Shown: positions 4,006-38,777 of the stretch, one piece after another | Layout: every line of letters begins with the position of its first letter | Position numbering within the stretch: position 1 is the stretch's first letter | Assembly: GCA_964522405.1 (NCBI GenBank) | Contig: CAZFTR010000004.1 | Coordinates: 22,349 to 86,348, forward strand | Direction of reading: 5' to 3' | DNA from: an uncultured Gammaproteobacteria bacterium | GTDB lineage: Bacteria; Patescibacteriota; Patescibacteriia; Magasanikbacterales; UBA922 | Length of the DNA stretch: 64,000 bases | Program-made: the position numbers and the translations under genes | Notes under the pieces: model-generated | Databases searched by the model: none | Seen by the model: the letters and a program-made list of their open reading frames with translations, nothing else | Told to the model about the DNA's origin: nothing

Positions 4006-4058
4006 TCGCCATTTATATGGGGTATATAGAGCAACTATGGCACTACTACCAAATACCA

Positions 4059-7124: not shown

Positions 7125-7148
7125 TTTTTGTTCGTTCGTCAAAGGAAA

Positions 7149-7661
7149 ATGCTAGTGAACAGATCAGATCGCGGCTGGACTGCCGCCTTCACGGTCGGGA
7201 GCTTGCTCCTGATCGCGATGCTCGTTGTGGACTACACGGTTCATGACCTTAAAATGAGAGAGCTGCACCAGGCCGTCGTCACGGACTTCGACGAGTTGGT
7301 GCCGGGCATGTGCTACGGCATGGAGATCGAGAGCGGCAAGTTCCAGGTGGTCTGCATCCACCAGTCGCGGAACTGCCCGGACCCCAAGTCCGACGACTAC
7401 GGCGTGGTCAAGCCAAGCGAGTGCCGCCTCGAACGCCCCGAATGCATCGAGTCGGCCAAGGTCACCGAGTTCGGCGCCCTGCAGTACCCTCAGTGGGTGG
7501 TGGTTGGCGAGAGCTACGAGATCTCGGGAAGCCGCCACACCCTCGACCTCGACGACCAGGACTACTGCGTGTTCACGCCCCACAAGTGGCCTGAGCCGTC
7601 CGACGAGTGGGAGTGGCAGGACGTCATCGAGGACACCGGGGACTCCCCCGACGCGCAATAG
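7149..7661 (+). CDS. Hypothetical signal-anchored Cys-containing protein with acidic C-terminus (G+C-rich island B)
   Basis: AAAGGAAA SD at 7141-7148, then ATG 7149 or GTG 7155 (the ORF-track TTG at 7128 has no SD). Contains an N-terminal TM helix (WTAAFTVGSLLLIAMLVV) and six Cys, with GC3-rich codons. Confidence 0.45.
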   Translation: MLVNRSDRGWTAAFTVGSLLLIAMLVVDYTVHDLKMRELHQAVVTDFDELVPGMCYGMEIESGKFQVVCIHQSRNCPDPKSDDYGVVKPSECRLERPECIESAKVTEFGALQYPQWVVVGESYEISGSRHTLDLDDQDYCVFTPHKWPEPSDEWEWQDVIEDTGDSPDAQ

Positions 7662-7792
7662 CGCAATCCGGCATCCTGCCGGGGCAGCGCGAGATGTGCG
7701 AGATTTTGACGACGAACGACGCCGCCCATCCCGAACTGCTTGAGCATCTAAAATCTGGAAATTCAAGCGGAGGCGGGATGTGCCGCTTAATT

Positions 7793-7827
7793 TAAAAATC
7801 CTACTCATTGTAGGATTTTTATTTTGT
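7793..7827 (+). terminator. Rho-independent terminator of island B
   Basis: AAAATCCTAC-tcatt-GTAGGATTTT followed by TATTTT. Confidence 0.6.
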
Positions 7828-10696: not shown

Positions 10697-10706
10697 GGAG
10701 TCAATT

Positions 10707-10886
10707 CTATTCTGCTGGATCTACTGGAGTTTCTCCCCCACCTTCTGGCATTGGAGCTACTTGCTCTCCACCTGCTTGAGTAGACATTTCTCCGCTTCCA
10801 CATGAGCATGTGCTACAAGCTGAACATCCACCACACTCCATGCATGCTGGACCGCTACAACTTGCGCAAGTCTTTAATTCTTCCAT
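10707..10886 (-). CDS. Small Cys-rich (metallothionein-like) protein, not present in the supplied ORF track (59 aa)
   Basis: The reverse-complement translates to MEELKTCASCSGPACMECGGCSACSTCSCGSGEMSTQAGGEQVAPMPEGGGETPVDPAE, with 10 Cys in the first 30 residues. A terminator lies immediately downstream. Confidence 0.45.
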   Translation of the reverse strand: MEELKTCASCSGPACMECGGCSACSTCSCGSGEMSTQAGGEQVAPMPEGGGETPVDPAE

Positions 10887-10965
10887 AGAAAAATTAAGGT
10901 TAAAAATATGTAATAAAGTATAGATTAGAAAAAACCTTTCGTCAAATTTGGATAAATTTCCTTTG

Positions 10966-10999
10966 CTGCACCCGAATCGCCGAAGCGAGACGGGTGCAG
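10966..10999 (-). terminator. Hairpin at the 3' end of the island C gene
   Basis: CTGCACCCG-aatcgccgaagcgagac-GGGTGCAG, a 9-bp G+C-rich stem. Confidence 0.4.
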
Positions 11000-11048
11000 C
11001 GTGAATCAGTAAAAAATCCTGGTGAAAAACCCGGTAGGACCTCGAGTT

Positions 11049-11354
11049 CTAGATGAAGTCGTGCTTGCGACACTTGCGCACCATGTGCAGCGCGCCGTCG
11101 ATGCGCATTGCCGGAATGCCGAGCGCGTAACGCACAACCTTACAGCCGACTTCGCCCAACTGCTCGTAGGCGAGAGCGATCCTGCTCTCCTGACCAAAGA
11201 TCCACTTCACAGCCGAGCACTCGAGAGCAGTGACCCTCTCATTCGCCGTCCCGATGGCCATGATTCCGTCGAGCGTCAACTCTCCGATGACCACAGCGCA
11301 GTCTTGAACCACCAGCTCGCCCATGAACAGAGCACTTCCCAATACTTCTTTCAT
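11049..11354 (-). CDS. Hypothetical protein of G+C-rich island C (101 aa, begins MKEVLGSALFMGELVV...)
   Basis: ATG at 11354 is preceded by GGGGGG and by TTGACA-N16-TATTAT. The longer track start at 11369 lies upstream of the SD. GC3-rich codons. Confidence 0.45.
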   Translation of the reverse strand: MKEVLGSALFMGELVVQDCAVVIGELTLDGIMAIGTANERVTALECSAVKWIFGQESRIALAYEQLGEVGCKVVRYALGIPAMRIDGALHMVRKCRKHDFI

Positions 11355-11385
11355 TGGCCCCCCGACCAATTATTGATCCAGGGAA

Positions 11386-11413
11386 ATAATAGCTCATTTA
11401 TATTTATTGTCAA
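11386..11413 (-). promoter_or_regulatory. Consensus promoter of the island C gene (TTGACA-N16-TATTAT, read on the minus strand)
   Basis: -35 at 11408-11413 and -10 at 11386-11391 (reverse-complement). Confidence 0.45.
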
Positions 11414-11437
11414 CCCTGGCGTTCGCGAACGCCAGGG
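11414..11437. repeat. Perfect 24-bp palindrome CCCTGGCGTTCGCGAACGCCAGGG abutting the island C promoter
   Basis: It shares the CCCTGGCG/CGCCAGGG stem with the island A hairpin and the CGTTCGCG core with the island E palindrome. Confidence 0.6.
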
Positions 11438-11518
11438 TGAACCGAGCAGAAGACAGTACTGAGTCAAAATTAAAAAACTGCCCAAGTGGACAGTTTTTTA
11501 GAAGTAATTCTTCTTTAG

Positions 11519-12823
11519 CTAAATTGCTTCACCTAGGGGTTTGGGCTTTTCTCCTGTTTCTTTCATTACTCCCTTCTCAAACAAAATTGCACCAAGAACA
11601 GTCACAAGAATAACACCAAGAAGTGCAGCTGCTGCCATAGTTTCACTGAGTACATTGTTGGCAATTGCAACTGCTACGAAAACTAAACCAACTTCACCAC
11701 GAATTGACATTGCATAACCAACAAGTTTTCCTTCGTTGCGGTCCTTGAATAAATATTTAACAATATATTTTCCATAGAATCCAAGAACTGTAAATATAAT
11801 TGCATAAATCCAAGCTTTTGGAGACATAATTGCTTCACGGGTAAGCATGGTTCCAATACTTACCAGGAATCCACCAACAAAGATATGTATATATCCCTCG
11901 ATCTTTTCCCAAACTTCATGTTTGATCTCATTATCAACTTTTGAAAGTACCACACCAATACCAAAGGCACCAAGAACAGGCTCAAGACCAACCACAGCTG
12001 CAAGTGCTCCAGCAATAATCAAGGCACCAAAGAAAAATCTAGTATAAGGCCCTGTTGTAGTTTTTACGTAATGCTTATCAAGATATTTGGCAATCTTATC
12101 AGCAACACCCATACTCCACATTAGATAAGCTCCACCAAAGAAAGCAAGAACAGCAATAGCAAGCCAGATAAGACTCATAGCTTCTAGGTGACCTTGAGAT
12201 AATTTTGCAAGCACAGTTAGAACCAGCACACCAAGAATATCATCAATCACAGCAGCCCCAACAATTCTGTTTCCCATGTTTGTACTAAGTTTTCCAGCAG
12301 CTTTTAGAGCTTCTACTGAAAGACCAACTGATGTTGCTGTGAAAATACCACCCAAGAAAATAGCCGGAAGCCATTCCATACCAAGAGCATAATGTCCTAG
12401 AAGCGCAAAAGTAACCAATGGAATAAAGACACCACCAAAAGCAACCAGACTGGCAATCCCAATATTTTTCTTGAGAAGTTCCATGTCAAAATGAAGTCCA
12501 GCTTCAAATAAAATAAAAAGCACACCAGCTAGGCGAGCAATTTCAACTCCGTGAGCATATGGATCAAGAACACCCATAGCTGCAGGACCAGCAATAATAC
12601 CCATTACAATCTTACCTGCCATTGGTGCAATACCAAATACTTTGGCAAGTCTTCCACCAAAAGATGCAAAAACAGCAAGAAATGCAATATCAATCAAAAT
12701 CGGCATGATGGTATTGATCTCATGATGATGACTGTGCAACAAGGCCTCGCGCAAATAGTGCAGACCAATTGCGAATACCACCACTTCTATAGTTAGAAGT
12801 GCTAGTGTCTTCAATTTATTCAT
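11519..12823 (-). CDS. Cation:proton antiporter (CPA2 / Na+/H+ exchanger family)
   Basis: 434 aa with about 12 TM helices; architecture and motifs are Kef/NapA-like. Confidence 0.75.
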   Translation of the reverse strand: MNKLKTLALLTIEVVVFAIGLHYLREALLHSHHHEINTIMPILIDIAFLAVFASFGGRLAKVFGIAPMAGKIVMGIIAGPAAMGVLDPYAHGVEIARLAGVLFILFEAGLHFDMELLKKNIGIASLVAFGGVFIPLVTFALLGHYALGMEWLPAIFLGGIFTATSVGLSVEALKAAGKLSTNMGNRIVGAAVIDDILGVLVLTVLAKLSQGHLEAMSLIWLAIAVLAFFGGAYLMWSMGVADKIAKYLDKHYVKTTTGPYTRFFFGALIIAGALAAVVGLEPVLGAFGIGVVLSKVDNEIKHEVWEKIEGYIHIFVGGFLVSIGTMLTREAIMSPKAWIYAIIFTVLGFYGKYIVKYLFKDRNEGKLVGYAMSIRGEVGLVFVAVAIANNVLSETMAAAALLGVILVTVLGAILFEKGVMKETGEKPKPLGEAI

Positions 12824-13038
12824 AAATTTTTCCTAATTGTCATCCCGAGCGAAATGCTAGAGAGTCAAGAGATCTCCTTTTCAAAGAATATTTTCCTTAA
12901 AAGGGTGATTCCTCCACTCTATTCAAGATAACCTATAAATTATATTAAATTACGACTGCAATATTATACAGTTAAATAGCTTAAAAATCAATACAATTTG
13001 GGGATAAAGCCAAGTTACAAAATTGTGAAAAATGCTGA

Positions 13039-13102: not shown

Positions 13103-13849
13103 ATGTTTCTTTTGGAATTCACGAAAAAGCACCCCTACCTGGTAATCGCCAGTGTGGCTCTGACCACTCTGCTGATTGCTGCCATGGTGATGATTCAGCA
13201 GAGGATCGATACCAGCAAGGAGCGGATCGCGACTGCATGTCTCGAGAGAATCGCCAACCCCTGCACCTTCTACAAGGTCTCAGACTCGGGCTACACCTGT
13301 GAGAAGTGGCACGTCGCCGACGGCACTGATTGCAAACAGAGCGCCTGCATGACAGGCGACTGTGTCTGCAAGGACGGCAAGCCGACTTCCGACTCCTGGC
13401 GGGACTGCTCTTCGCCGAGCGATCCCTGTCGGGTCGACGTTTGTGTTCCTGACGACGCTGAAGAGCTGGGCTACAGATGCGTGCCCGGGGTGCATGAGGA
13501 CCGGAATCGCAAGATCTGGCTCGATCACAAGCCCGACTTCACCCCCTGCCTGGACGATGGCATCTGCATCGGACGTACCTGCATTGGCCCCGAAGGTCGC
13601 GTGCTGGCTCCACTACCGATCAAGTTCACCGAAACCAAGGCTCGGGACATGCCGACAGGCTTCGAGCTCAATCTCTGCGGGAACTGCCATCGCTACAGCT
13701 ACGACTGGAACTACAGCGGTCCTGTCACCTGTGGCAGCTGCCACCTGGAAGGCGCCGACATGCTCAACCGATCATCCGATAGACTGCTCTGGCATCTCGA
13801 GATCGAGGAAGGGCTGCCGGCCAAAGAGTTCCTGGGGGAGGTGATGTAA
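13103..13849 (+). CDS. Signal-anchored Cys-rich protein with two CxxCH motifs (putative dihaem c-type cytochrome), G+C-rich island D
   Basis: GGGAGG lies 10 nt before the ATG at 13103 (the ORF-track start at 12998 lies in A+T-rich DNA upstream of the SD). One TM helix, then 20+ Cys including CGNCH and CGSCH. GC3-rich codons. Confidence 0.4.
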   Translation: MFLLEFTKKHPYLVIASVALTTLLIAAMVMIQQRIDTSKERIATACLERIANPCTFYKVSDSGYTCEKWHVADGTDCKQSACMTGDCVCKDGKPTSDSWRDCSSPSDPCRVDVCVPDDAEELGYRCVPGVHEDRNRKIWLDHKPDFTPCLDDGICIGRTCIGPEGRVLAPLPIKFTETKARDMPTGFELNLCGNCHRYSYDWNYSGPVTCGSCHLEGADMLNRSSDRLLWHLEIEEGLPAKEFLGEVM

Positions 13850-13978
13850 TGCCGCAGACACGAGCACGAGGGCCACCAAGTAGAGGCGCCGGCACCAGCC
13901 CCGGCGGGAGCATGTCAACTGCTGCTCTGCACCGGCTGGCGACTCTCTTATTATTTTAATTTTAGAATGATGAGAAAG

Positions 13979-14007
13979 AAAAAACTCGCTTATTGCGAGT
14001 TTTTTTA
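13979..14007. terminator. Bidirectional intrinsic terminator (end of the atp operon)
   Basis: AAAAAACTCGC-ttat-TGCGAGTTTTTTT. Confidence 0.6.
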
Positions 14008-14594: not shown

Positions 14595-16773
<2,179 letters not shown>

Positions 16774-17706: not shown

Positions 17707-17751
17707 ACATTATTAGTGTGTAGTTTATAGTTACTAGTTTATAGATATAAT

Positions 17752-17777
17752 CTGTTAACTGTGATCTGTTAACTGTC
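17752..17777. repeat. Two direct copies of ATCTGTTAACTGT in the atpA-atpG spacer
   Basis: Same GTTAAC-core repeat family. Confidence 0.5.
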
Positions 17778-17779
17778 AA

Positions 17780-19270
17780 CTATTTCTTAAATTCTTCACA
17801 AGCACTCTTCAACTCTCCCTCAATCTCATCACTCCACTCTCCACCTGCAATTTTTTCTAGCAATGAAGATTTTGAATTAGACATGAATTCAACAAATTTT
17901 GCTTCTGTTTCCTTAATTGAACTGATTTCAATTCCATCAAAATACCCTTTTGAAGCTGCGTAAATTACAGCAACTTGATGTTCTACTGCCATTGGTGAAA
18001 ATTGTTTTTGTTTCAAAAGCTCTACCATTAATCTACCACTTTCAATTTGCTTTTTTGTTTCCGGGTCAAGATCACTTGAAAATTGCGCAAATGCTTCTAA
18101 TTCTCTAAACTGAGCAAGTGTTAATTTCATACTTCCGGCAACTTTCTTCATTGGCTTAATCTGAGCAGATCCACCTACACGTGAAACTGATAAACCCACA
18201 TTCAACGCAGGACGAATACCCTTGAAAAATAGATCTGTTTCAAGGAAAATCTGCCCATCTGTAATTGAAATTACATTTGTTGGAATATATGCTGACACAT
18301 CTCCAGCCTGTGTTTCAATAATTGGCAACGCTGTAATTGATCCTCCACCATGTTTGTCATTTAAGTTACATGCTCTTTCAAGTAAACGTGAATGAAGATA
18401 GAAAACATCTCCAGGATAGGCTTCACGACCTGGTGGACGACGAAGAAGGAGTGAAATTTCACGATATGCCCAAGCTTGCTTGGTAAGATCATCATAAACT
18501 ACAAGTACATCTTCACCTTTGTCTGCAAAGTATTCTGCAATTGTAACTCCGGCATATGGCGCAAGATAGGCCATGGCTGCAGGGTCAGAAGCACCTGCCA
18601 AAACTATAGTTGTGTATTCCATTGCTCCTGCTTCTTCAAGTTGAGATACTATACGAGCAATTTTTGATTCTTTTTGACCAACTGCAACATAAATACATTT
18701 ACAATTTTTTCCTTTTTGATTGATAATAGTGTCGATTGCAACTGCAGTTTTTCCAGTCTGTCTGTCACCAATAATAAGCTCACGTTGTCCACGCCCGATT
18801 GGGATAAGTGCATCAACTGCTTTGATTCCTGTTTGGAGTGGAGTGTCAACTGGTTGACGTGTCATAACTCCCGGAGCAACTCTCTCCATTGGATAAAATT
18901 CCTTTGTTTTTATGTGACCTTTTCCATCAATTGGTTTTCCAAGCGCATTTACCACTCTTCCGATAAGCTCATCTGCCACAGGAACTGAAAGAATTTTCCC
19001 AGTTCTCTTCACTGTATCACCTTCTTTGATGTGCTTGTACTCGTCAAGAATAATGGCACCAACTGTTTCCTCTTCTAAATTCAGAGCAACTCCCATACTT
19101 CCGCCTGGGAACTCAAGCATTTCCTGTGCCTGACACTTATCAAGTCCACTCATGCGAGCAATTCCATCTCCAACCTCAATTACTGCTCCAATTTCTTCAG
19201 TCTTAATCTCCTTTTTAAAAGCATCAATATTTTGTTTTAGTTGTGCTACTATTTGATCTGTGTGTGACAT
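17780..19270 (-). CDS. atpA: F1 ATP synthase alpha subunit
   Basis: Walker A GDRQTGKT; 496 aa. Confidence 0.95.
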
Positions 19271-19276
19271 ACTTTT

Positions 19277-19302
19277 TAGTTAATAGTTTATAGTTAACAG
19301 TT
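19277..19302. repeat. GTTAAC-core repeats (TAGTTAATAGTT / AGTTAACAGTT) in the atpH-atpA spacer
   Basis: Same repeat family. Confidence 0.45.
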
Positions 19303-19313
19303 TGTAGTTTTTA

Positions 19314-19703
19314 TTATTTAGTTAGTTTAGTATTTAAATTTGATAACTGTGTTTTTACACTAGCGTCATAAATAACATTTCCTTTTTTTACTTTTACTCC
19401 ACCAATCAGAGACTTATCCGTATCAAGCTCAAGCTCAAAATGCTCACTAAATTTTGTTGCAATTTGCTCTGCCATTCCTTTTGAAATCTTATGAGCGCTT
19501 GTGATTTTGATGGTTTCAATTCCTTCTTGTTCTTTTGTGTACTTAAGAAAATGCTCCACTATTATGTCCACTTTTTTCAATGAATTATTTTTCTTAAGAA
19601 GTTTGAAAAATTCAAGAACTGCAGAATCTAGATCTTTTCCTGAAAGCTCTTTGGTAATTCTATATAAAACTTTTGCGTATTGTCTTGGGAATAATTTCTG
19701 CAT
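19314..19703 (-). CDS. atpH: F1 ATP synthase delta (OSCP) subunit, short form
   Basis: Position between atpF and atpA, delta-like C-terminal region; 129 aa. Confidence 0.65.
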   Translation of the reverse strand: MQKLFPRQYAKVLYRITKELSGKDLDSAVLEFFKLLKKNNSLKKVDIIVEHFLKYTKEQEGIETIKITSAHKISKGMAEQIATKFSEHFELELDTDKSLIGGVKVKKGNVIYDASVKTQLSNLNTKLTK

Positions 19704-20300: not shown

Positions 20301-20310
20301 AATATTAATT

Positions 20311-20357
20311 TAGTTAACAGTTGGCAGTTTACAGTTAACAGAAATTTACTGTTAACC
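20311..20357. repeat. GTTAAC-core repeats with an 8-bp hairpin GTTAACAG-aaattta-CTGTTAAC in the atpF-atpE spacer
   Basis: Contains AGTTAACAGTT, TTTACAGTTAACAG and CTGTTAACC. It is followed by a GCCGGG-caaaa-CCCGGC hairpin at 20379-20395. Confidence 0.5.
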
Positions 20358-20402
20358 TATTAAATAAGCCGATTGGGCCGGGCAAAACCCGGCTTGATCG
20401 AT

Positions 20403-20737: not shown

Positions 20738-20788
20738 TAAGTTAAATAAATTCTTAACTAATAACTACTAACTATAAACTACCCACTA

Positions 20789-21568
20789 TTAATGTGCTCC
20801 ATGTGGTTTTTCTATTGCAACTGTCATGTATACAAGTGTTAACATAGCAAATACAGCAGCTTGAATCAGACCAACAAGTAGCTCAAGTAACATAAATGGT
20901 GTAGGTACCAGCAATGTAACAAGTGCAGAAATCACTGTAATAAGAACTTCTCCGGCAAAAATATTTCCAAATAAACGCAATGAAAGTGAAAGAACCTTAG
21001 CTATTTCACTAACTATCTCAATCAGACCAACTCCAAATTCAATAACAGCAGTAAGAACAGCAACCGGTCCTTTGGTAATAGCTTTAAAAACATTTTTTAT
21101 CTGAACAAATTTTCCAAGATGTGTAAAAACTCCAATACTAACAAATCCAAGTATATGAGATCCAAGCACAGCAACAAGAGCCATGGCAGCAGTAAGATTC
21201 AAATCACTATTGGCTGGTCTAAGTAGAAAATTATGTCCAACAGTAATACTTCCTGTTCCTGGTAGAAGGCCTAACCAATTTGAAAGTAAAATAAAAAAGA
21301 AGATAGATCCGACAATTGGCAGAAAGCGAATTGTCTTTTTTCTATCTCCTGTTACTTGGTCAAAGAATGGAAGTAGCATGTCTACTATATATTCACATGC
21401 GTTTTGGAATTTTCCAGGACGAAGTTTAATGTTTTTTTTGATTGTAATACCCACTGCGAGCAAAATTAATACAGCTATCCAAGCATTTATCATGGTATTA
21501 GTAATATTGATTGATCCAATATTAAATAAAACTTCTGGTGCCAATGTTGGAATATGTATTTCTGCCAT
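20789..21568 (-). CDS. atpB: Fo ATP synthase a subunit
   Basis: 259 aa with 5-6 TM helices and a conserved Arg in the penultimate helix (LSLRLFGNIFAGE). Confidence 0.85.
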   Translation of the reverse strand: MAEIHIPTLAPEVLFNIGSINITNTMINAWIAVLILLAVGITIKKNIKLRPGKFQNACEYIVDMLLPFFDQVTGDRKKTIRFLPIVGSIFFFILLSNWLGLLPGTGSITVGHNFLLRPANSDLNLTAAMALVAVLGSHILGFVSIGVFTHLGKFVQIKNVFKAITKGPVAVLTAVIEFGVGLIEIVSEIAKVLSLSLRLFGNIFAGEVLITVISALVTLLVPTPFMLLELLVGLIQAAVFAMLTLVYMTVAIEKPHGAH

Positions 21569-21954: not shown

Positions 21955-23436
21955 TTACCTGTTTGGCTTAGGTGGGAGGCGATACTGCGCTTCTCTAAAT
22001 TCATCTGATGGACCTTTTCTGAATTGAATTTCATCTTGGAGTATTCTATCTGTTTCAATTGGAACATTTCTAGTTTCTTTTTGCCATTTTTCTGCCAATT
22101 CATCACGTGATTCTTGATCTTCTGGATATTCAAAATCATTTTTTCTGGCTAAGTGCGCATACATTGTCTGAACTTTTTGAGGTAATTTTTCTATTGCTTC
22201 GAGTACAGCCTTACTATGAACTTCGAAAACTCTTAATTCGATTCTACCGGCACCACTACCTTCAATTTCATCTGCGCCTTTTACGAAAAAAGGTGCATCC
22301 CATTCATCATCATCAAGTCTTTTTCTGGAAGACACACGGTCTTTGAGAAAAATATTTTGTAATTTCATAATCTCCTCATATTCAGAGGAGCTACTATCTA
22401 ACACATCTCGACTTCTGGTTTTTAAACCATATTGTGCCCTCTCTAACACATCAAAAAGTTCCTCAGATGGAATTTCAAGATTTAGATGCATGGTAGTCTT
22501 CCCTTCTTTTAATCCACTCTTCGGAATAAACCCGGATTCAACCAATGATTCAAGTGAAAGTGAAGCTAATTTGGCATTTTTAAATGGCCGAGATACTAAC
22601 TCGATATACTTTCCATGCTCTCTGTCCAACTGCAAATCAGACATTGAGCGTAAATTATTGTAGTCTCGTTTTGCTGGGGTATTGTCTACGTAATTTGGTA
22701 TTTCTACCTCATAACCGATCATAGGCAAATCCGGGTCAGACTCGTCGGCAAGTGCTTCTTTTATTCTTCGGACATAATCAAATATTCTGTCATGCTCAAC
22801 AACCCCATCCTGATTTTGTGATAATAACATCGGCCCGACAATTCTTAGAAATTCATTGAAGCTAATTTCTTCTTCCTTAAATTGATTTCTATCATATATT
22901 TCTCGTGCTTTATTAAAAAGCTTGCTAAGTTCTTTGAGCTCTTTTTCAAATGAATCAGGAAGTGTTAAAAAAAAATAAAACTTTGGATGCCTTAAAATTA
23001 CCGGTACGTATTCATGATTAACTCTTCCCCAAGTTTTTTCAGGAAAATCCTTAGTTATATGTAAAAGTTTGAGTAAATCAGGAGATTCAAAAATCATTAA
23101 ATGAAATTTTTCCGGTATGGTTTGCCAAACTTGTGGTGTTGCTGCTGAAATAACATTTGCAACTGTTTGAAATTCATCATCACCAGCAAAGGAAAGACCT
23201 AATACACGCTTAAGAACTACTTTTGGCATAGCCAATATGTTTTCTAAGTAATGCTTCAGCAGGTAGCTATTATCTGCCTTATCCTCTAGCAGGATTTCCA
23301 AATTATAAGGTATCTGACCATCTCCCCCCACCTGATCAGGATGATTTCTAAACAAAACATCAAGACTTAATTTCTGATCTGGATATTTATCTAGCAAATC
23401 TCTATAAGCTTTGGTATCTCTAAAAGCGTCAGTCAT
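21955..23436 (-). CDS. Hypothetical protein (493 aa)
   Basis: Long hydrophilic ORF, host-like composition, no recognisable motif. Its start abuts the tatD stop. Confidence 0.5.
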   Translation of the reverse strand: MTDAFRDTKAYRDLLDKYPDQKLSLDVLFRNHPDQVGGDGQIPYNLEILLEDKADNSYLLKHYLENILAMPKVVLKRVLGLSFAGDDEFQTVANVISAATPQVWQTIPEKFHLMIFESPDLLKLLHITKDFPEKTWGRVNHEYVPVILRHPKFYFFLTLPDSFEKELKELSKLFNKAREIYDRNQFKEEEISFNEFLRIVGPMLLSQNQDGVVEHDRIFDYVRRIKEALADESDPDLPMIGYEVEIPNYVDNTPAKRDYNNLRSMSDLQLDREHGKYIELVSRPFKNAKLASLSLESLVESGFIPKSGLKEGKTTMHLNLEIPSEELFDVLERAQYGLKTRSRDVLDSSSSEYEEIMKLQNIFLKDRVSSRKRLDDDEWDAPFFVKGADEIEGSGAGRIELRVFEVHSKAVLEAIEKLPQKVQTMYAHLARKNDFEYPEDQESRDELAEKWQKETRNVPIETDRILQDEIQFRKGPSDEFREAQYRLPPKPNR

Positions 23437-23438
23437 AT

Positions 23439-24332
23439 TTAATTTAAAATCTTTTTGAATAATCTTTTTGAATTCTCAACTAATATTTCTTTTAATTCTT
23501 TCTCCTCAACTCCACGCAAGTTTGAAATAAATTTGATCTGCTCTTCGCACATCCAAGGTTCAGATCTTTTTCCACGATATTTCTGAGGAGCAAGATAAGG
23601 CGAATCAGTTTCCACTAGAATTCTATCAAGTGGAATATTTTTTACTACTTCTAATAAATCTTCTTGCTGTTTTGGATTGGTTTTCTTTGCCGGAAAGGTA
23701 ATAATTCCTGTGAAACCCAAATAACAGCCCAGATTCAGATATTCCTGAGCTACTTGCCAATTTCCACTAAAACAATGCACTGTAGCGCGAATTTCTTCAT
23801 TCAATGATTTTAATAATTCGATCAAATGTCCATGCGCACTTGAATTGACACTTAGTTTTGCATCCGGTTTTGCGTCACGAGTATGAATAACAAGAGCAAG
23901 ATTGTTGTTTTTGGCAAATTTATAATGATCTAAAAAAACTTTTTTTTGTTTTTCAAGGACTATTTCTGTATCAATCTCATTTGGATCCGGTATATGAAAT
24001 AGATCTATTCCAGTCTCCCCTACTCCAATAATTTTGTCTGGGGCTGAATTATATAACTCTTGATAGTAATCAACATCAAAATCTTCTTCCTTACTGGTAA
24101 AACTGCTCTCTTCTTCATCTATATAAGTAGGAAATAGATGATTGGGATGGGTTCCAATGGTTGCGTACATATCTTCATGCTCTCGAGCAAGCTCTACAGC
24201 CAACTTACTGGTATTTTTTTGAGTACCTACCAGATTCACAATGGTGTTTTTCTCTCTAATTCTTTTTATTATTTCCTCTCGATCTTGATCCAAGCCCTTA
24301 AATTGTAAATGTGAATGTGTATCAATTATCAT
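23439..24332 (-). CDS. tatD: TatD-family metal-dependent hydrolase/DNase
   Basis: MIIDTHSHLQF N-terminus and conserved His/Asp/Glu metal ligands of TatD. Confidence 0.85.
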   Translation of the reverse strand: MIIDTHSHLQFKGLDQDREEIIKRIREKNTIVNLVGTQKNTSKLAVELAREHEDMYATIGTHPNHLFPTYIDEEESSFTSKEEDFDVDYYQELYNSAPDKIIGVGETGIDLFHIPDPNEIDTEIVLEKQKKVFLDHYKFAKNNNLALVIHTRDAKPDAKLSVNSSAHGHLIELLKSLNEEIRATVHCFSGNWQVAQEYLNLGCYLGFTGIITFPAKKTNPKQQEDLLEVVKNIPLDRILVETDSPYLAPQKYRGKRSEPWMCEEQIKFISNLRGVEEKELKEILVENSKRLFKKILN

Positions 24333-24459
24333 ATTAATCCTTAAATGTAATCAAATTATACAGTAAATTAAAATTTAATGAAATTTTTGACAAAATAATT
24401 AATCTTAAATACTATAAGTTATAGAGACCAAGTCGGCACCCCCGGCAAGGAAAATAGCC

Positions 24460-24588
24460 GTGAGCAAATTCAGAGATAATCCCAAACTGTCGGACAAGCC
24501 TCCTGTGTTCACCATCGAGTGCAATCACTGCTTCGTCCGGATCATGATCTGGGCCAATAGGTGTTGGTACTGCGGCCGCGCTCGATGA
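24460..24588 (+). CDS. Small zinc-ribbon protein (42 aa) in G+C-rich island E
   Basis: AGGAAA lies 7 nt before the GTG. Product is MSKFRDNPKLSDKPPVFTIECNHCFVRIMIWANRCWYCGRAR, with CxxC...CxxC. The overlapping minus-strand track ORF 24412..24603 lacks an SD. Confidence 0.3.
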   Translation: MSKFRDNPKLSDKPPVFTIECNHCFVRIMIWANRCWYCGRAR

Positions 24589-24632
24589 GTACCTGTGAAC
24601 CAAGCAAGAACATCAACCGCTCACCGGCGACC

Positions 24633-24707
24633 AAGCTCGTTCGCGTCGCCAACAATATTTTAAATTCAAATTTTAAAATATTGTTGGAGGAATACGCGAA
24701 CGAGCTT
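24633..24707. repeat. 75-nt nested palindrome at the edge of island E
   Basis: A 13-bp G+C-rich outer stem (AAGCTCGTTCGCG / CGCGAACGAGCTT) encloses a 14-bp A+T-rich inner stem (AACAATATTTTAAA-ttcaaat-TTTAAAATATTGTT). Confidence 0.6.
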
Positions 24708-24715
24708 TTGGTTAC

Positions 24716-24743
24716 AAAAAAAGCACCATGAAATGCTTTTTTT
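24716..24743. terminator. Bidirectional intrinsic terminator
   Basis: AAAGCA-ccatgaaa-TGCTTT flanked by A- and T-runs. Confidence 0.55.
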
Positions 24744-24759
24744 GTCTAAAATATAGATT

Positions 24760-25296
24760 TTATAAAAGTATCCCTTCAGTATAATCTACAGTTGATTTCA
24801 ATAACTGAAAAGCATCTGGCAAAAGAGGAACCAGTAAATTAGCAATATTACTAAAAAAAGCTGCCATATCTGACTGAGCAAGCTTTTGCATAAGAGCTTC
24901 TGAAATTGGAAACCTCTCTATGAAATATACAATTGCTGCCAGCGTCAGAGTTCCTTCGAGCGCACCAAACACAGCGCCAAGAAGTCTATTTACAGTTCCA
25001 ACAAGCGGTAAATGAGTGAAAACAGACAAAATTTTTCTAAAAAACCAAAAAGCTATTCCTACTAACCTGACAATCAACAAAAATCCGACCACAAACAAAA
25101 CGATTTTCGCTGTATTACTTTCCCATCCAAGAAAACCTGCTAACCATGATGCAGCAAGATCATAGTATCTACTAGCTAAAAAAATTCCCAAAACCACACC
25201 CAGTAGTGATCCAAGAGCATGGATAAGACCAAAGCGCAAACCTGCTATTGCAAATATGGCGATTACTGCTATAAAGATAATATCAAGCGAAGGCAT
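24760..25296 (-). CDS. cvpA: CvpA-family membrane protein
   Basis: 178 aa, four TM helices, CvpA-like layout and motifs. Confidence 0.65.
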   Translation of the reverse strand: MPSLDIIFIAVIAIFAIAGLRFGLIHALGSLLGVVLGIFLASRYYDLAASWLAGFLGWESNTAKIVLFVVGFLLIVRLVGIAFWFFRKILSVFTHLPLVGTVNRLLGAVFGALEGTLTLAAIVYFIERFPISEALMQKLAQSDMAAFFSNIANLLVPLLPDAFQLLKSTVDYTEGILL

Positions 25297-25373
25297 ATTA
25301 ATCTATTGCTTTAATATTTAAAATGTGATATTTTTAGCGCTGTAATCCAGACTCGAGACAGGAGAAAGCCATC

Positions 25374-25706
25374 ATGGCAAAAGGAGACAAGAATCGCGGT
25401 CTGCGGCGCCGACGGCGGCGGCAGGAGGCCAAGAAGCAACGTCAGCTGCGGCAGGCGATCGCCACCATGGAGGAGCGACGCGGCGAAGAGCCTCAGTGGA
25501 CCTGCGGTGCCAACATCGGTACCCATCGAGAGCCCAAGCCCTGCGGCACCAAGGTGCTGATGACGAAGGGCAGCTGCCCCAAAGGCCACACCTGGCCGAA
25601 GATGACGGGCGGCAAGGCTCGCGAGCAGGCCGGCGTGGATCACGGCCGCGGCCACGGCTACCGACCCTACACACCGCCCCGCGACGACTACGACTACCCC
25701 TGGTAG
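25374..25706 (+). CDS. Hypothetical highly basic protein with a Cys/His cluster (G+C-rich island F)
   Basis: AGGAGA lies 8 nt before the ATG. N-terminal RRRRRRQEAKKQRQLRQ, then C-x6-H...C...C-x3-H. GC3-rich codons. Confidence 0.4.
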   Translation: MAKGDKNRGLRRRRRRQEAKKQRQLRQAIATMEERRGEEPQWTCGANIGTHREPKPCGTKVLMTKGSCPKGHTWPKMTGGKAREQAGVDHGRGHGYRPYTPPRDDYDYPW

Positions 25707-25744
25707 GCAGAAGGAGGCTTCAGAACCTACGATCGCACCCCCAC

Positions 25745-25776
25745 CCCCGTGTCTGTTCTCGAGAAGACGCGGGGGC
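25745..25776 (+). terminator. G+C-rich hairpin closing island F
   Basis: CCCCCGTGTCT-gttctcgag-AAGACGCGGGGG (one mismatch), followed by cagacagacttttctt. Confidence 0.45.
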
Positions 25777-25818
25777 AGACAGACTTTTCTTAAATTTGAG
25801 TTTTAAAAAACTCTTTTT

Positions 25819-27327
25819 TTATTTTTCTAATCTTTTAAATAATATTTCTCCTTTTTTTATTATAGCATCTTTTTGCAATCTTCCCCACTCTTTTTCCAAC
25901 TCCAGCGCTTCTAATTTTTCTGAATCAATTCCAAGCTGAGATAAAATCTTTTTTGCTGATTCCGGGATTACTGGAAGAAGTGCAATTGCAATATGACGAA
26001 GTGCTTCTGCAAGCTGATATAGTAGCTCTGAAATATCTTCACCATTTTTTGCCTTTTCCCATGGTTTTTGATTTGAAATCTTTTCATCACATTTTGAGAC
26101 TAAGCTATTTATGTGATTTATCAAATCATCGAATTTGTATTGATTAACTAAGTCAGTGTAGTATTTCCAAAACTTATCTAAATCGAAAATATCTTGAGCT
26201 ACTTCTGGCACACTACCATCACTATACTTCTCAAGCATAGTCAAAATCCTCGAAGTCAAATTCCCAACTCCATTTACCAAGTGCGCTGTATAAAATTCCT
26301 CAAATCTGGAAATACTAAAATCACCATCATCATGAGCCGGAATTGCCCCAAGAAGATAATACCTTACTGCATCTATCCCGTATTTCTGGACAGTTTCATA
26401 AGGATCAACTACATTTCCAACGCTTTTACTCATTTTTTGACCTTCTGAAGTTATAAATCCATGAATAAATACTTGTTTTGAAGGTTCTACACCTGCTGAA
26501 AGCAGCATAGCTTGCCACATAGCGGTCTGCTGGCGAAGGTTGTCTTTTCCGGCAACCTGAACTCCCGGCCAAAAATCTGCAAAATCGCCCTTTTCATTCG
26601 GCCAACCCAGTGTTGAGATATAGTTAATAAGCGCGTCAAACCAAACATACATAACATGATCAGGATCTCCAGGAACATCCACTCCCCAAGGCATTTTCTC
26701 TCGCAATCTGGAAATACTAAAATCCCTTAAACCTGATTTAACAAATGTTTTTATTTCATTGAAACGATAATCTGGAATTACAAAATCTGGCTGATTTTCA
26801 TAAAGCTCAAGTAATTTATCCTGGTATTTACTAAATAGGAAAAAATAATTTTCTTCATCAATTAATTCAATTTCATAGGTGGGATGAATTGAACATTTTC
26901 CATCAACCAGTTCTGAATCTGTTTTCTCTAGTTCACAACCCACACAATACTTTACTTGGTATTTTCTTTTTTCAATATCTCCATTTTTATTGCATAGTTC
27001 CCAAAAATGTTGTGCTGCTTTTTTGTGATCTGGATTAGTTGTTTGAATAAATGTCAAACCATTCCAAAGCCCAAGAAGATTTTTCAGATCTCTAAACTTA
27101 TCAGCATATTCATCTACATATTTCTGTGTTTCCACTCCTGCCTCCTCGGCATTTCGGTAAATCTTAAGTCCATGCTCATCTGTTCCAGTATTAAAAAAGA
27201 CTCTCTCTCCTAAAAGTTCATGATAGCGCGCAATGACATCTGCCTGAATAATTTCTAAAGCAAAACCGATATGAGGCTTGGCGTTCACATATGGAAGTGT
27301 TGTTGTGATGTAGAAGTTTTTTGGCAT
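25819..27327 (-). CDS. metG: Methionyl-tRNA synthetase
   Basis: HIGH-type motif PHIGFALE, KMSKS, and a Zn knuckle CVGCELEKTDSELVDGKCSIHP. Confidence 0.9.
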   Translation of the reverse strand: MPKNFYITTTLPYVNAKPHIGFALEIIQADVIARYHELLGERVFFNTGTDEHGLKIYRNAEEAGVETQKYVDEYADKFRDLKNLLGLWNGLTFIQTTNPDHKKAAQHFWELCNKNGDIEKRKYQVKYCVGCELEKTDSELVDGKCSIHPTYEIELIDEENYFFLFSKYQDKLLELYENQPDFVIPDYRFNEIKTFVKSGLRDFSISRLREKMPWGVDVPGDPDHVMYVWFDALINYISTLGWPNEKGDFADFWPGVQVAGKDNLRQQTAMWQAMLLSAGVEPSKQVFIHGFITSEGQKMSKSVGNVVDPYETVQKYGIDAVRYYLLGAIPAHDDGDFSISRFEEFYTAHLVNGVGNLTSRILTMLEKYSDGSVPEVAQDIFDLDKFWKYYTDLVNQYKFDDLINHINSLVSKCDEKISNQKPWEKAKNGEDISELLYQLAEALRHIAIALLPVIPESAKKILSQLGIDSEKLEALELEKEWGRLQKDAIIKKGEILFKRLEK

Positions 27328-27374: not shown

Positions 27375-27600
27375 TGCATCAATTGATGTGGGCGATTGTC
27401 GGTTACTCCAGTTTTCATAATTGTTGGTTCTGCCAACTTCCGATCGGGTTGAAGCCTGGACCGTCCTGGAAGGATCCCGAAACAAGCTCCGTCGCTGTCA
27501 GGGGACAAAAACCGCAAGCTCCTCACGCTTGCCGACCATGAATTCAGAACATCTACGTCGGATCGCCGGTAGAGAGTAGGTTGCGTCCCCTGGCATCCAA
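27375..27600. other. G+C-rich ~225-bp element G between rsmI and metG with nested stems; candidate structured RNA, no convincing ORF
   Basis: Stems: CAGGGGAC (27499-27506) with GTCCCCTG (27586-27593), enclosing GCAAGC-tcctcac-GCTTGC and CCGAC...GTCGG; also GTTGG-ttctg-CCAAC. The only ORFs lack an SD. Confidence 0.3.
27505..27532 (-). terminator. Minus-strand intrinsic terminator inside element G (candidate rsmI terminator)
   Basis: On the minus strand: GCAAGC-gtgagga-GCTTGC followed by GGTTTTTG. Confidence 0.4.
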
Positions 27601-27602
27601 CT

Positions 27603-28271
27603 CTACTTGCCAACCACTACAACAAACTCGCCTTTTTCTTTAATTTTTAAATTACCGATCTCACTAATTTTTCCGCGATAAACTGTTTCAAATTTCTTGG
27701 TTAATTCTCGACAAATACAAATTTTTATTTCTGGATCAAGCACTTTTGATAAATTATCAAGTGTTTTTTTAATTCTATGACTTGACTCATATAGCGCAAC
27801 AGTATATTTCTGATTAGACAACTCTTCAAAATATTTATTTCTTGCTTTTTTGTGGGGTGGAAATCCCAAAAAAACAAACTTATCTGTTGGAAATCCTGAA
27901 ATACTCAAGGCTGTAGTCACTGCAGAAACTCCCGGAATAGGGATTATTTGCAAATCTTCAACATTATTTAACAGATCTTCAATTAATTTATTTCCCGGAT
28001 CGCTTATCCCCGGAGTTCCAGCATCAGTAACAAGAGCTAGATTCAAACCCTGATTTAATAATTCTGAAATCTCTTTTATTCTCTTAGTAGAACTATGCTG
28101 ATGATAAGTTTTTACCTTAGTATCTATCTGATAATGGTTTAAGAGCTTTCTAGTTACTCGAGTATCTTCACATAAAATAAAATCTACGCTTTTAAGAGTA
28201 GCAATGGCTCGAAGAGTGATATCTGCCAAATTACCAATTGGCGTAGAAACTATGTATAAAATGGGATTCAT
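27603..28271 (-). CDS. rsmI: 16S rRNA (cytidine1402-2'-O)-methyltransferase RsmI
   Basis: Tetrapyrrole-methylase fold and N-terminus LYIVSTPIGNLADITLRAIATLKSVDFILCEDTR. Confidence 0.85.
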   Translation of the reverse strand: MNPILYIVSTPIGNLADITLRAIATLKSVDFILCEDTRVTRKLLNHYQIDTKVKTYHQHSSTKRIKEISELLNQGLNLALVTDAGTPGISDPGNKLIEDLLNNVEDLQIIPIPGVSAVTTALSISGFPTDKFVFLGFPPHKKARNKYFEELSNQKYTVALYESSHRIKKTLDNLSKVLDPEIKICICRELTKKFETVYRGKISEIGNLKIKEKGEFVVVVGK

Positions 28272-34784: not shown

Positions 34785-36266
34785 ATGCAGAATAGACTTA
34801 CAACTAAGGCGATTTTCTTTGATAAACAAACCTGGCTTTTATTTGCAGGGTTTTTCTTGGCTAGAATTGTCTCCTTTGCATTGCATGGGCATCAGATAAT
34901 ACAAGCACTACTTGTATTTTTTATTTTAATGCTACTGGGCATTTTATATTATAAAAATGAATACTATGGCTGGGCCATTGTACTCACAGAACTATTCTTG
35001 GGCGGCTCTGGGCATTTTATAGAATTTTTTGGATTGTCACTACGAACTTGTATAGTCCTAACTTTTATAACACTTTGGGCGCTTTTTAATATTCTTGATC
35101 CCGGTCGCAAACATCGATTAAAAATTCCTCATGGTCTGTTCTGGATTTTTATACCTTTGATCATTTTTGCTGCTATTTCAGCAGTAATAGGCTTGTTCAA
35201 TGGACACTCAGTTGCACGTGTGATCCAAGATTTTATGCCTTTTAGTTTTTTGGTACTTCTTCTCCCGGCTTATCATATGTTTGAAAATGAGAAGATACGT
35301 CATCATTTTATACGACTTGTAATGGTATTTATAATTGGATCAGCCCTCTTTGCTCTTTTTACCTTTGTTTTATACAGACTTGGCCTAAGTGAGTTGCAAG
35401 ATCCATTTTATAAATGGATGAGAGATGTTGCTATGGCAAAAATAACTCAAGTTACCCCATTTTTCTATCGAGTGGTCTTGCCAGAGCATTTACTAAGTGT
35501 TCCTGTGATTCTGATAACCATGTCTCTACTAATGAGAGACGAGAAACACCATACTATGTGGAGAATCTTACTCTTTTTTGGATTGTTCTTATTAGCTATA
35601 AATTTTTCACGAGCTTATCTATTGGGTTTTGCTGTTGGAATTTTAGTTCTCAAGTACAGACACAGCTTTAAGCAATGGTTCAAAGAATCAGCTGTTGCTG
35701 TCCTATTATTTCTGTTTATTTTTTCATCTATGTCTGTCATATCAAGCATAGGAAAAAGTACTGGCCTGGAAATACTAGGATTAAGAATTGGGAGCATTGT
35801 AAGCCCTCAAACTGAAGTAAGTACCAATGCTAGAATGGAAAAACTTGCTCCCATCATATCCTTGATAAGAAAGCATCCTTTTGTTGGAAATGGACTGGGA
35901 GCCAGTATTTTATACTATGACAAAACTATTGGCGCAGTAACCCCAAGTATTCACTTTGATTGGGGCTACTTAGAAATGTGGGCTGAACTTGGTATCTTGG
36001 GTAGTGTTTGGCTCTTACTCATAGCGTTATTTATTGTTTTTGAGATAATTAAAAAAATCAGAACTGTTGCTGATTTTCATGATTTCAAAGTTGGACTTTT
36101 GGCAGCAATTGTATCAATGTTAATTATTAATATTACCACACCTGCACTGTTTCATACTCTAAGTATCTTTGCTTTAACATTTGTTATTGCCTTTATTACC
36201 AGACCTGTGGAAGTATTTGATTATTTTATTACTATGATTTACAGAATATTTAATAGATTAGATTAA
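34785..36266 (+). CDS. Polytopic membrane protein (O-antigen ligase/Wzy-like topology)
   Basis: 493 aa, 10 or more TM helices and a large loop near the C-terminal third. Confidence 0.45.
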   Translation: MQNRLTTKAIFFDKQTWLLFAGFFLARIVSFALHGHQIIQALLVFFILMLLGILYYKNEYYGWAIVLTELFLGGSGHFIEFFGLSLRTCIVLTFITLWALFNILDPGRKHRLKIPHGLFWIFIPLIIFAAISAVIGLFNGHSVARVIQDFMPFSFLVLLLPAYHMFENEKIRHHFIRLVMVFIIGSALFALFTFVLYRLGLSELQDPFYKWMRDVAMAKITQVTPFFYRVVLPEHLLSVPVILITMSLLMRDEKHHTMWRILLFFGLFLLAINFSRAYLLGFAVGILVLKYRHSFKQWFKESAVAVLLFLFIFSSMSVISSIGKSTGLEILGLRIGSIVSPQTEVSTNARMEKLAPIISLIRKHPFVGNGLGASILYYDKTIGAVTPSIHFDWGYLEMWAELGILGSVWLLLIALFIVFEIIKKIRTVADFHDFKVGLLAAIVSMLIINITTPALFHTLSIFALTFVIAFITRPVEVFDYFITMIYRIFNRLD

Positions 36267-36291
36267 GCTTAATCTAATCTATTAAATACTT

Positions 36292-38390: not shown

Positions 38391-38419
38391 TTGACAAACT
38401 GATTTTTTTGAGTATACTT
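38391..38419 (+). promoter_or_regulatory. Consensus promoter TTGACA-N17-TATACT of island H, immediately divergent from the Mur ligase start codon
   Basis: Same hexamers as the island B promoter; 38391-38396 and 38414-38419. Confidence 0.45.
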
Positions 38420-38424
38420 TTGGC

Positions 38425-38634
38425 ATGCGGTCTATGAAGTACGCACTCCCGATTAAGTTCGGGGATCTGCCAATGTGGTCGCGGTTCCAGTTCAGCGGAA
38501 CCTCGCGCTGGATCAAGACTGGTCACAAGTCCGCTGCGACGCTGACACCGGCGCCTCGTAGCTCCACCTTCTCCAACTCCTGTGGCGCGCCGCGCCGAGT
38601 GGATAGGTGCACGACCGTCTTCCCCTGCATCTAG
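38425..38634 (+). CDS. Questionable small ORF (69 aa) in G+C-rich island H
   Basis: It follows the consensus promoter but has no SD, and the product is low-complexity and S/R/T-rich. The island may instead be noncoding. Confidence 0.2.
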   Translation: MRSMKYALPIKFGDLPMWSRFQFSGTSRWIKTGHKSAATLTPAPRSSTFSNSCGAPRRVDRCTTVFPCI

Positions 38635-38676
38635 GGACACCTGATCCGTCTCTCGAAGCATCAATGATCGCCGCTG

Positions 38677-38700
38677 CCGGGGGTTCTTCGGAACCCCTGG
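38677..38700. other. Very stable hairpin with a UUCG tetraloop at the distal edge of island H
   Basis: CCGGGGGTTC-ttcg-GAACCCCTGG, 10 bp with one G·U pair, and no flanking T-run. Confidence 0.5.
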
Positions 38701-38777
38701 CAAAACTCATAATTGAACTAATCTCTAGATAAAATCTAGAGATTTTTTATCACAATTTAGCTAAATTTGCAATAGAT

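Follow-up and report, generated by a model that had tools for sequence, protein, structure and literature searches.

Island E, a G+C-rich insert between cvpA and tatD of a Magasanikbacteria genome: a candidate orphan micro-gene with a long nested stem-loop

Introduction

What is the function of a short, sharply bounded G+C-rich segment that carries a 42-codon open reading frame (ORF) and a very long nested hairpin, and that lies between two housekeeping genes of an A+T-rich bacterial genome? This question is raised by island E, which we have analyzed within 64,000 nt of contig CAZFTR010000004.1 (positions 22,349 to 86,348; referred to here as the window; 64 kb, 36.3% G+C). The methionyl-tRNA synthetase (MetRS) encoded in the window is 60-69% identical to MetRS of metagenome-assembled genomes of Candidatus Magasanikbacteria, a lineage of the candidate phyla radiation (CPR/Patescibacteria). 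Island E is housed as a + strand unit in the 427-bp gap between cvpA and tatD. An original prediction for this locus described a zinc-ribbon ORF next to a composite palindrome and suggested for the latter a role as cruciform, operator, RNA processing element or recombination site.

Based on the analyses reported here, we suggest that island E is an autonomous, lineage-specific, moron-like orphan micro-gene with a + strand terminator or 3'-protecting hairpin, and we consider the chances of this reading to be about even. In this model, a promoter at the boundary between A+T-rich and G+C-rich DNA would drive a transcript of ~300 nt that diverges from tatD and that is translated, maybe, into a four-cysteine micro-protein from the Shine-Dalgarno (SD)-preceded 42-codon ORF. 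An 85-nt, G+C-clamped stem-loop running into UUUUGGUU would form at the 3' end of the RNA, and this stem-loop would be the unit's own intrinsic terminator on the + strand as well as a barrier to 3' exonucleases. A second terminator at 24714-24745 would back up the stem-loop and also end cvpA transcription. In other words, the two hairpins together would insulate the two convergent transcripts by keeping them apart. In this model, transcription, translation, termination and RNA stabilization are all inferred from sequence features; direct results are the anatomy of the unit, the stability of its hairpin, the lack of the insert in relatives, the lack of homologues and the recurrence of the layout. 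The features named in the original prediction are confirmed, and its interpretation is supported in part: for the hairpin, we consider a role at the RNA level most likely.

A long nested stem-loop leads into a U-tract on the + strand

The palindrome of island E spans 24629-24713 and folds on the + strand into a nested stem-loop of 85 nt, in which 5 bp form the basal, 14 bp the outer and 16 bp the inner stem. The G+C-rich outer stem pairs 24633-24646 with 24694-24707, while the perfect, A+T-rich inner stem pairs 24649-24664 with 24672-24687; an asymmetric 2x6 internal loop separates the two stems, and the apex is a 7-nt loop with the sequence TTCAAAT. The nested arrangement and the 7-nt loop are as originally described, but the stems are longer than the 13 bp (outer) and 14 bp (inner) given in that description. 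The hairpin begins 41 nt past the stop codon of the 42-codon ORF, and the G+C-rich 3' spacer between them occupies 24589-24628.

This structure is highly stable. The folding check yielded an energy of -44.9 kcal/mol for 24629-24713 compared to -14.0 +/- 2.8 kcal/mol in shuffles (z = -11.0), and the complementary strand is nearly as stable (-43.3 kcal/mol). In a sliding 100-nt scan of the 64 kb, the segment with the hairpin ranks second in stability at a G+C content of only 39%, and for its G+C content it is by far the most stable segment.

The two strands of the hairpin have different 3' flanks. On the + strand, the G+C-rich base (...CGCGAACGAGC) passes directly into TTTTGGTT; on the - strand, the flank is TTGGTCGC and is not rich in U. 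Accordingly, the layout of an intrinsic terminator, i.e. a G+C-rich stem leading into a U-tract downstream of a stop codon, is found on the + strand only. The structure does not have the compact form of such hairpins (stem of ~5-20 bp, loop of 3-8 nt) because its 5 + 14 + 16 pairs are interrupted by an internal loop. As originally predicted, it is far larger than ordinary terminators, with ~35 pairs compared to 10-13 pairs in the host terminators of the window. Termination alone does not account for so extreme a stem length or for the perfect pairing of the A+T-rich upper half. A near-perfect duplex of more than 30 bp is the kind of substrate that RNase III cuts.

Adjacent to the nested hairpin, and separate from it, lies a bidirectional terminator of the host type (24714-24745), in which an A-tract and a T-tract enclose a short core and form a 12-bp hairpin (-11.4 kcal/mol on the + strand and -14.0 kcal/mol on the - strand). 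It is located 14 nt past the stop codon of cvpA, and terminators of the same design follow other host genes (7793-7821, 13979-14005, 38720-38744 and 50210-50238). Its symmetry would allow this terminator to serve cvpA on the - strand and, on the + strand, to act as a second stop for the transcript of the island. The original prediction had named, as the finding that would speak against it, a structure made of two independent terminators of the flanking genes together with an outer stem that is not conserved elsewhere. The outer stem is indeed not conserved elsewhere (see below); the palindrome, however, is a single structure, and the second terminator is the one at 24714-24745.

A predicted promoter and a candidate four-cysteine micro-protein precede the stem-loop

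Upstream of the ORF, the A+T-rich spacer contains a predicted sigma-70-type promoter, TTGACA-N17-TACTAT (24387-24415, + strand), with 10 of 12 matches to the consensus. The predicted transcription start site near 24422 coincides with the point at which the G+C content jumps from ~27% to ~52%. The predicted 5' leader (24422-24459, + strand) includes an SD-like AAGGAAA (24448-24454), and the candidate ORF follows on the same strand with a GTG at 24460 and a TGA at 24586-24588 (24460-24588). SD sequence, GTG and 42-aa product are all located where the original prediction had placed them. The product, VSKFRDNPKLSDKPPVFTIECNHCFVRIMIWANRCWYCGRAR, has the cysteine pattern CNHC-x10-CWYC (C21-N-H-C24 and C35-W-Y-C38, spacing 10) and in this way conforms to the pattern of two CxxC knuckles spaced ~10-30 residues apart.

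Several properties of the ORF point to coding. Its G+C content at the three codon positions is 0.40, 0.48 and 0.71, and such an excess at the third position is the pattern expected of a coding sequence from a G+C-rich source. An SD-preceded + strand ORF of at least 42 codons appears in 2.9% of shuffles of the transcript body. A stop-free stretch with a double CxxC arises in 0.46% of shuffles. A double CxxC is also present in 14 of 966 stop-free stretches of the real window, so that a scan of all frames meets a few by chance. Overall, we regard the evidence that this ORF is a gene as suggestive but not strong. Two overlapping frames were considered and rejected: a 56-aa ORF on the + strand (24561-24731) has no SD sequence, and neither does a 63-aa ORF on the - strand (24412-24603), in which the mirrored G+C content at the codon positions (0.62/0.47/0.45) identifies an antisense shadow.

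The 42-aa product is an orphan. A word-index search returned zero relatives among 5.8 billion clusters; an exhaustive phmmer search of 1.84 billion representatives returned two weak multi-stretch matches only, and the one inspected is a repeat protein. There was no family match in Pfam, PHROGs, NCBIfam or PADLOC, and nothing below E = 1.3 among PDB sequences. A single-sequence AlphaFold2 (AF2) model of modest confidence (predicted local distance difference test score, pLDDT, of 64) has strands at residues 16-21, 24-31 and 34-41, which flank the cysteine pairs, and a Foldseek comparison of this model with the PDB gave no match to a solved fold (best E = 2).

Small one-domain C4 zinc-ribbon or zinc-finger micro-proteins are known, for instance the CPxCG mu-proteins of Haloferax. 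With its 42 residues, two CxxC pairs 10 residues apart and modelled beta-strands flanking these pairs, the product of island E may resemble such proteins. Unlike in the CPxCG mu-proteins, the motif is CNHC/CWYC, and sequence, profile and fold searches all lacked a match. Thus, the zinc-ribbon label of the original prediction derives from the CxxC motif only, and the product would be a candidate metal-binding protein.

Island E as an insert between two ancestrally contiguous genes

Both neighbors of island E are - strand genes. cvpA (Colicin_V family, PF02674; 24760-25296), supported by the metG-cvpA-tatD synteny, is convergent to the island, and tatD (PF01026; 23439-24332) is divergent from it. 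A perfect TATAAT on the - strand (24360-24355), 22 nt upstream of the tatD ATG, may be part of the tatD promoter region.

The gene order metG-cvpA-tatD is kept across dozens of CPR loci. Among the 36 loci of relatives that contain both cvpA and tatD (the window's own sequence, L001, is excluded from this count), the two genes overlap or are at most ~25 bp apart in 18 and are at most ~125 bp apart in 23. No look-alike of island E, neither of its DNA nor of its peptide, was found in 80 related loci (1.3 Mb). The contiguity of cvpA and tatD in relatives, together with the absence of the island E sequence there, argues that island E is a lineage-specific insertion. From this comparison of sequences, island E is an insert between two ancestrally contiguous genes and in the orientation opposite to both.

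The sequence of the island is 100% identical in three independent assemblies of Sequence Read Archive (SRA) data. L001, the Logan assembly of SRR8146440, is identical over 24171-25858 and thus covers the island and both flanking genes; L083, a contig from SRR31802803, is 100% identical over 23164-24647; and L084 is 100% identical over 23368-24529. Therefore, island E is not an assembly artefact. The L083 contig breaks at 24647, inside the left arm of the palindrome. Such a break may be the reason why units of this kind are under-represented in assemblies and gene calls.

The hairpin is single-copy in everything searched

The arms of the hairpin have no second copy in the window with up to three mismatches allowed, and no copy of the hairpin is present in the 1.3 Mb of relatives' loci. 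The inner palindrome has no match in the viral contigs of IMG/VR, and a blastn comparison of island E with phage and plasmid records gave no match. A pattern search for the outer stem in JGI metagenomes returned one match, on contig Ga0070660_100000687 (L082). Positions 1-240 of this contig are a perfect 240-bp fold-back at the contig end, from a G+C-rich organism and with an unrelated interior, and we rejected it as an assembly artefact. A perfect fold-back trivially yields any 13-mer together with its complement and in this way gives rise to false inverted-repeat matches in pattern searches. In total, the search for the outer stem in the window, relatives and metagenomes gave no genuine second copy.

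The original prediction also connected the outer stem to the palindrome of another island of the window, island C. The core in question, CGTTCGCG, is indeed found again there (11420-11431). However, at least one 8-mer in common with the outer stem is found in 64% of resampled islands, which places this link at chance level. Two further shared words, the 13-mer ATTGTTGGAGGAA in common with the related locus L002 and the 12-mer TTTAAATTCAAA in common with L009, are unconvincing by a random-segment control, in which 2.9% of random 550-nt segments share a k-mer of at least 13 nt and 9.4% share one of at least 12 nt. Likewise, the 3' regions of 14 island-type units from the window and relatives have no common motif beyond the A-tracts of terminators, not even a 6-mer. 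An attC-like consensus across islands was dismissed; the excess of GTTCG/CGAAC was noticed post hoc, and a palindrome counts these words twice.

Among the 20 large ORFs of the window that were scanned, all of which are housekeeping genes, none encodes a recombinase, transposase, integrase or reverse transcriptase. We rejected a retron, an IS200/IS605 element, a signal recognition particle (SRP) RNA and a leader-peptide attenuator: neither a reverse transcriptase nor TnpA/TnpB is encoded nearby, Rfam gave no match, and the + strand carries no gene downstream. The k-mer AAGCTCGTTCGCGTCGCCAACAAT, along with the island ORFs, could be used to trace donor organisms or strain variants.

Units of the same layout in the window and in related genomes

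Island E is one of ~10 sharply bounded intergenic G+C islands (52-68% G+C) in the 64 kb. Further ones are located at 3517-4065, 7126-7812, 10700-11470, 13111-14002, 25308-25817 (island F, also delimited as 25320-25807), 27383-27640, 38401-38740 and 49821-50189. We inspected nine islands (A-I). Eight of them (A, B and D-I) lie on the + strand, opposite to the - strand host genes on their flanks; island C has the direction of its flanking genes. In most islands, the composition boundary carries a TTGAC(A/T)-N16-18-TAnnnT promoter, and an SD sequence is present; the promoter type of island E is found in front of islands A, B, C and I and of units in relatives. In most islands, one or two G+C-rich hairpins past the stop codon are followed by the terminator of the convergent gene, which is of the host type. 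The complete layout, i.e. promoter, SD sequence, G+C-rich ORF, hairpin(s) and the A/T-tract terminator of the convergent gene, recurs in islands A, B, D, F, H and I and in L002, L008, L015, L019 and L012 of the relatives.

The ORFs of islands A, B, C (106 aa), D, E and F have a G+C content of 0.65-0.87 at the third (G+C3) and 0.38-0.55 at the second (G+C2) codon position. The exception is a Cys-rich 59-aa ORF of island C with a G+C3 of 0.25. Several products are rich in cysteine (8 of 59, 18 of 248 and 6 of 170 residues), and some are membrane-anchored. None of the island products has a family match in Pfam, PHROGs, NCBIfam or PADLOC. The proteins of island B (170 aa) and island D (248 aa) have no homologue except for D's own sequence; the island B protein also lacks a homologue in viral contigs, and its AF2 model is uninformative (pLDDT of 43). 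Within this group, island E is the shortest, has the lowest G+C content (~52%) and shows the weakest codon periodicity.

The same slot between cvpA and tatD is occupied in two Magasanikbacteria relatives, L002 (12098-12724) and L008 (3571-4116), by a unit in the orientation of island E. Each of these two units has a TTGACT promoter, a G+C-rich ORF (147 and 121 aa, respectively) and two hairpins. They have promoter and terminator sequence in common (ATATTGACTTTTT; TTCTGTTTTATAGA), while neither ORF is related to the other or to island E. Thus, three unrelated ORFs are found in the cvpA-tatD slot across three species. A tblastn comparison of the proteins of L002, L008 and L015 with the gap that holds island E gave noise only.

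The closest structural parallel to island E is the L015 unit, which lies between typA and proB (1945-2375, - strand), and for which homology to island E is not detectable. It has a TTGACA-N17-TTAACT promoter and a 73-aa ORF with eight cysteines. Next comes a nested hairpin, in which the outer stem (GTTCGGTC) is G+C-rich, the inner stem is A+T-rich and the apex is CATTTTAAAATG, and then a host-type terminator. Homology between the two was considered and rejected: the DNA alignment is unconvincing, and the peptide match FxDN..KPP (E = 0.003) is not significant after multiple testing. In L009, a long nested hairpin with a 7-nt loop (12781-12880) lies in the cvpA-tatD gap beside the start of tatD. 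Long intergenic hairpins (25-30 bp) seem to be common in this clade.

What kind of element is island E?

Phage morons are independent transcription units that have been added between conserved genes, and they are defined by their own promoter and terminator, a G+C content unlike that of the flanks and absence from relatives (Cumby et al. 2012, PMC3594210). Island E resembles them in design. Judged by the promoter consensus and hairpin stability, the island would have a promoter and a terminator of its own; the G+C content is ~52% compared to 36% in the window; and it lies between genes that are adjacent in relatives, from which it is missing. Unlike phage morons, island E is part of a chromosome, among housekeeping genes (metG, cvpA, tatD and the atp operon), and is not associated with a prophage; it has no PHROG match and no match in phage DNA. 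Also unlike morons, the cargo of the islands is G+C-rich in an A+T-rich host, and the units reach a density of ~10 per 64 kb. The 3' end can be compared with intrinsic and bidirectional terminators, with which island E shares a G+C-rich stem base leading into a U-tract on the + strand 41 nt past a stop codon. The pairing of the nested hairpin with a second, A-tract/T-tract hairpin that serves cvpA is similarly reminiscent of terminators between convergent genes. By contrast, ~35 paired positions, two coaxial stems and an A+T-rich upper half are not part of the intrinsic terminator design.

Several points weigh against an autonomous micro-gene with its own terminator. The ORF statistics are individually weak, and stop-free stretches are the rule in G+C-rich DNA. 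Because the peptide has no homologue in any of the searches, conservation cannot back coding. The U-tract (UUUUGGUU) is short, and a consensus terminator scan, whose stem, loop and tail limits do not admit either design, called neither the nested hairpin nor the one at 24714-24745. Moreover, a 35-pair nested stem far exceeds what a terminator needs, and it may have another or an additional role. Finally, the perfect 16-bp A+T-rich inner stem is unexplained by a terminator role, which suggests that the palindrome either formed recently or is actively maintained.

If the ORF is untranslated, island E could be a gene for a small non-coding RNA, or a transcription unit with an antisense or insulating role. 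The long hairpin would then be the functional part (for instance as an RNase III substrate or decoy), or the unit would serve to interrupt read-through from cvpA to tatD. The orphan status of the peptide and the modest statistics of the ORF fit such a unit as well; promoter and terminator delimit a transcript whether or not it is translated, this transcript would be antisense to any read-through between the two ancestrally contiguous genes, and a near-perfect duplex of more than 30 bp is well suited to RNase III. However, the folding of the transcript body (24422-24632) does not exceed that of shuffles in stability (z = -1.45 on the + strand and +0.34 on the - strand), so that a structured RNA body was rejected. 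In Rfam, at gathering and E-value thresholds, the only match across the window is one tRNA; at the hairpin there are only generic miRNA-precursor look-alikes of ~30 bits, far below thresholds of 70-150, so that a known RNA family was rejected here. SD spacing, G+C3 periodicity and the double CxxC favor coding, and the sister islands are clearly coding-like, with a G+C3 of up to 0.87. Taken together, we find a non-coding unit unlikely. A comparably low probability applies to the idea that island E is a functionless, decaying remnant of foreign G+C-rich DNA, with an ORF that is truncated or arose by chance and a palindrome generated by template switching during replication, i.e. an inverted duplication. 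In support of this idea, the perfect inner arms, the asymmetric 7-nt center and the 2x6 internal loop resemble a young inverted duplication, the island is the smallest and compositionally weakest of its group, its peptide lacks homologues, and the ORFs of relatives in the same slot are, with 147 and 121 aa, much longer. Such a remnant would nevertheless have retained a consensus promoter, an SD sequence and an intact frame with paired CxxC motifs; it would still be sharply bounded in a 36% G+C genome, in which drift is expected to erode G+C-rich sequence; and it would be identical in three assemblies from different runs.

The remaining alternative places the function in the DNA. The palindrome would then form a cruciform, serve a dimeric binding protein as operator, or belong to a mobile cassette, either as its recombination site or as its end (similar to attC, to a MITE or to the hairpins of IS200/IS605); a site of this kind could explain how the G+C-rich cassettes arrive. 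The palindrome is long and near-perfect on both strands, its size (75-85 nt) is within the attC range, and cassette-like units with a 3' hairpin recur, with unrelated ORFs in the cvpA-tatD slot of L002 and L008. The attC sites of integrons, imperfect palindromes of 57-141 nt, close a cassette on its 3' side, and island E similarly has an ORF followed by an imperfect palindrome, with content that varies between genomes. Two heptamers, GTTGGAG and CGCCAAC, agree with the attC core boxes at 6 of 7 positions each. These boxes are, however, internal, at the junction of inner and outer stem, instead of the terminal RYYYAAC/GTTRRRY boxes of attC, and the stems are without extrahelical bases. Also unlike integrons, there is no integrase among the 20 large ORFs scanned, as there is no transposase or reverse transcriptase; the islands are scattered and not arrayed; there is no structural consensus and no motif beyond A-tracts in the 14 island 3' regions; and each unit has its own promoter. 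Extragenic palindromes of the repetitive extragenic palindrome/bacterial interspersed mosaic element (REP/BIME) and Correia/miniature inverted-repeat transposable element (MITE) types act in 3' untranslated regions as mRNA stabilizers and RNase III targets. Like these, the palindrome of island E is long, extragenic, 3' of a gene and between convergent genes, and RNA stabilization or processing is plausible for it. By contrast, REP/BIME and Correia/MITE are multi-copy families, while the palindrome of island E is without another copy in the window, in relatives and in viral, phage and plasmid collections, and its one metagenome match is an artefact. For these reasons, we consider the cruciform, operator or recombination site of the original prediction improbable and continue to favor an orphan micro-gene with a hairpin that acts in the RNA.

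Island E alone is ordinary to modestly interesting; more notable is the family of G+C-rich orphan units to which it belongs. We speculate that these units represent an undescribed class of G+C-rich orphan cassettes in Magasanikbacteria, with host-type promoters and often Cys-rich micro-proteins, that turn over in fixed intergenic slots of a streamlined, A+T-rich genome and use the 3' hairpin as a boundary or processing signal; at present, we hold this to be quite doubtful. A literature search on G+C-rich islands in CPR bacteria found nothing relevant. If true, such a class would imply a dedicated route for acquiring or generating foreign-looking genes, for instance from a G+C-rich host of these episymbionts. 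If the pattern is real and general, it would bear on how ultra-small symbiotic bacteria gain small, possibly host-directed proteins and on where orphan genes come from. The island units are concrete targets for metatranscriptomics and peptide work.

Other features of the window

Island F (68% G+C) adjoins island E, is located in the metG-cvpA gap and is another lineage-specific insertion. Its 110-aa ORF (25374-25706, + strand) has a G+C3 of 0.82, an Arg-rich N-terminus, Cys/His clusters and no family match; the Logan gene caller chose an antisense frame of 114 aa instead. Island D encodes a 248-aa membrane-anchored protein with 18 cysteines (13103-13849, + strand; G+C3 of 0.70), and a search of 5.8 billion clusters matched this protein only to its own sequence on a Logan contig. 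In island C, the 59-aa ORF with eight cysteines (MEELKTCASCSGPACMECGGCSACSTCSCGSGE...) is on the - strand (10707-10886) behind a TTGACG-N17-TATACT promoter; from its sequence, the product, which has no family match, looks like a metallothionein or a peptide precursor. A perfect, loopless palindrome of 26 nt (11413-11438; ACCCTGGCGTTCG/CGAACGCCAGGGT) lies directly next to the -35 hexamer of the - strand promoter of island C and has CCCTGGCG in common with the hairpin of island A (3974-4004).

Intergenic gaps of the ATP synthase operon contain direct and inverted A+T-rich repeats built on GTTAAC-containing units (CTGTTAACTGT..., TAGTTTATAGTTA...), located at 14595-14635, 17707-17792, 19273-19314, 20303-20366 and 20755-20795. 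Between a convergent O-antigen ligase-like gene and a glycosyltransferase gene, there is a perfect, loopless palindrome of 42 nt (36247-36288; TATTTAATAGATTAGATTAAG/CTTAATCTAATCTATTAAATA).

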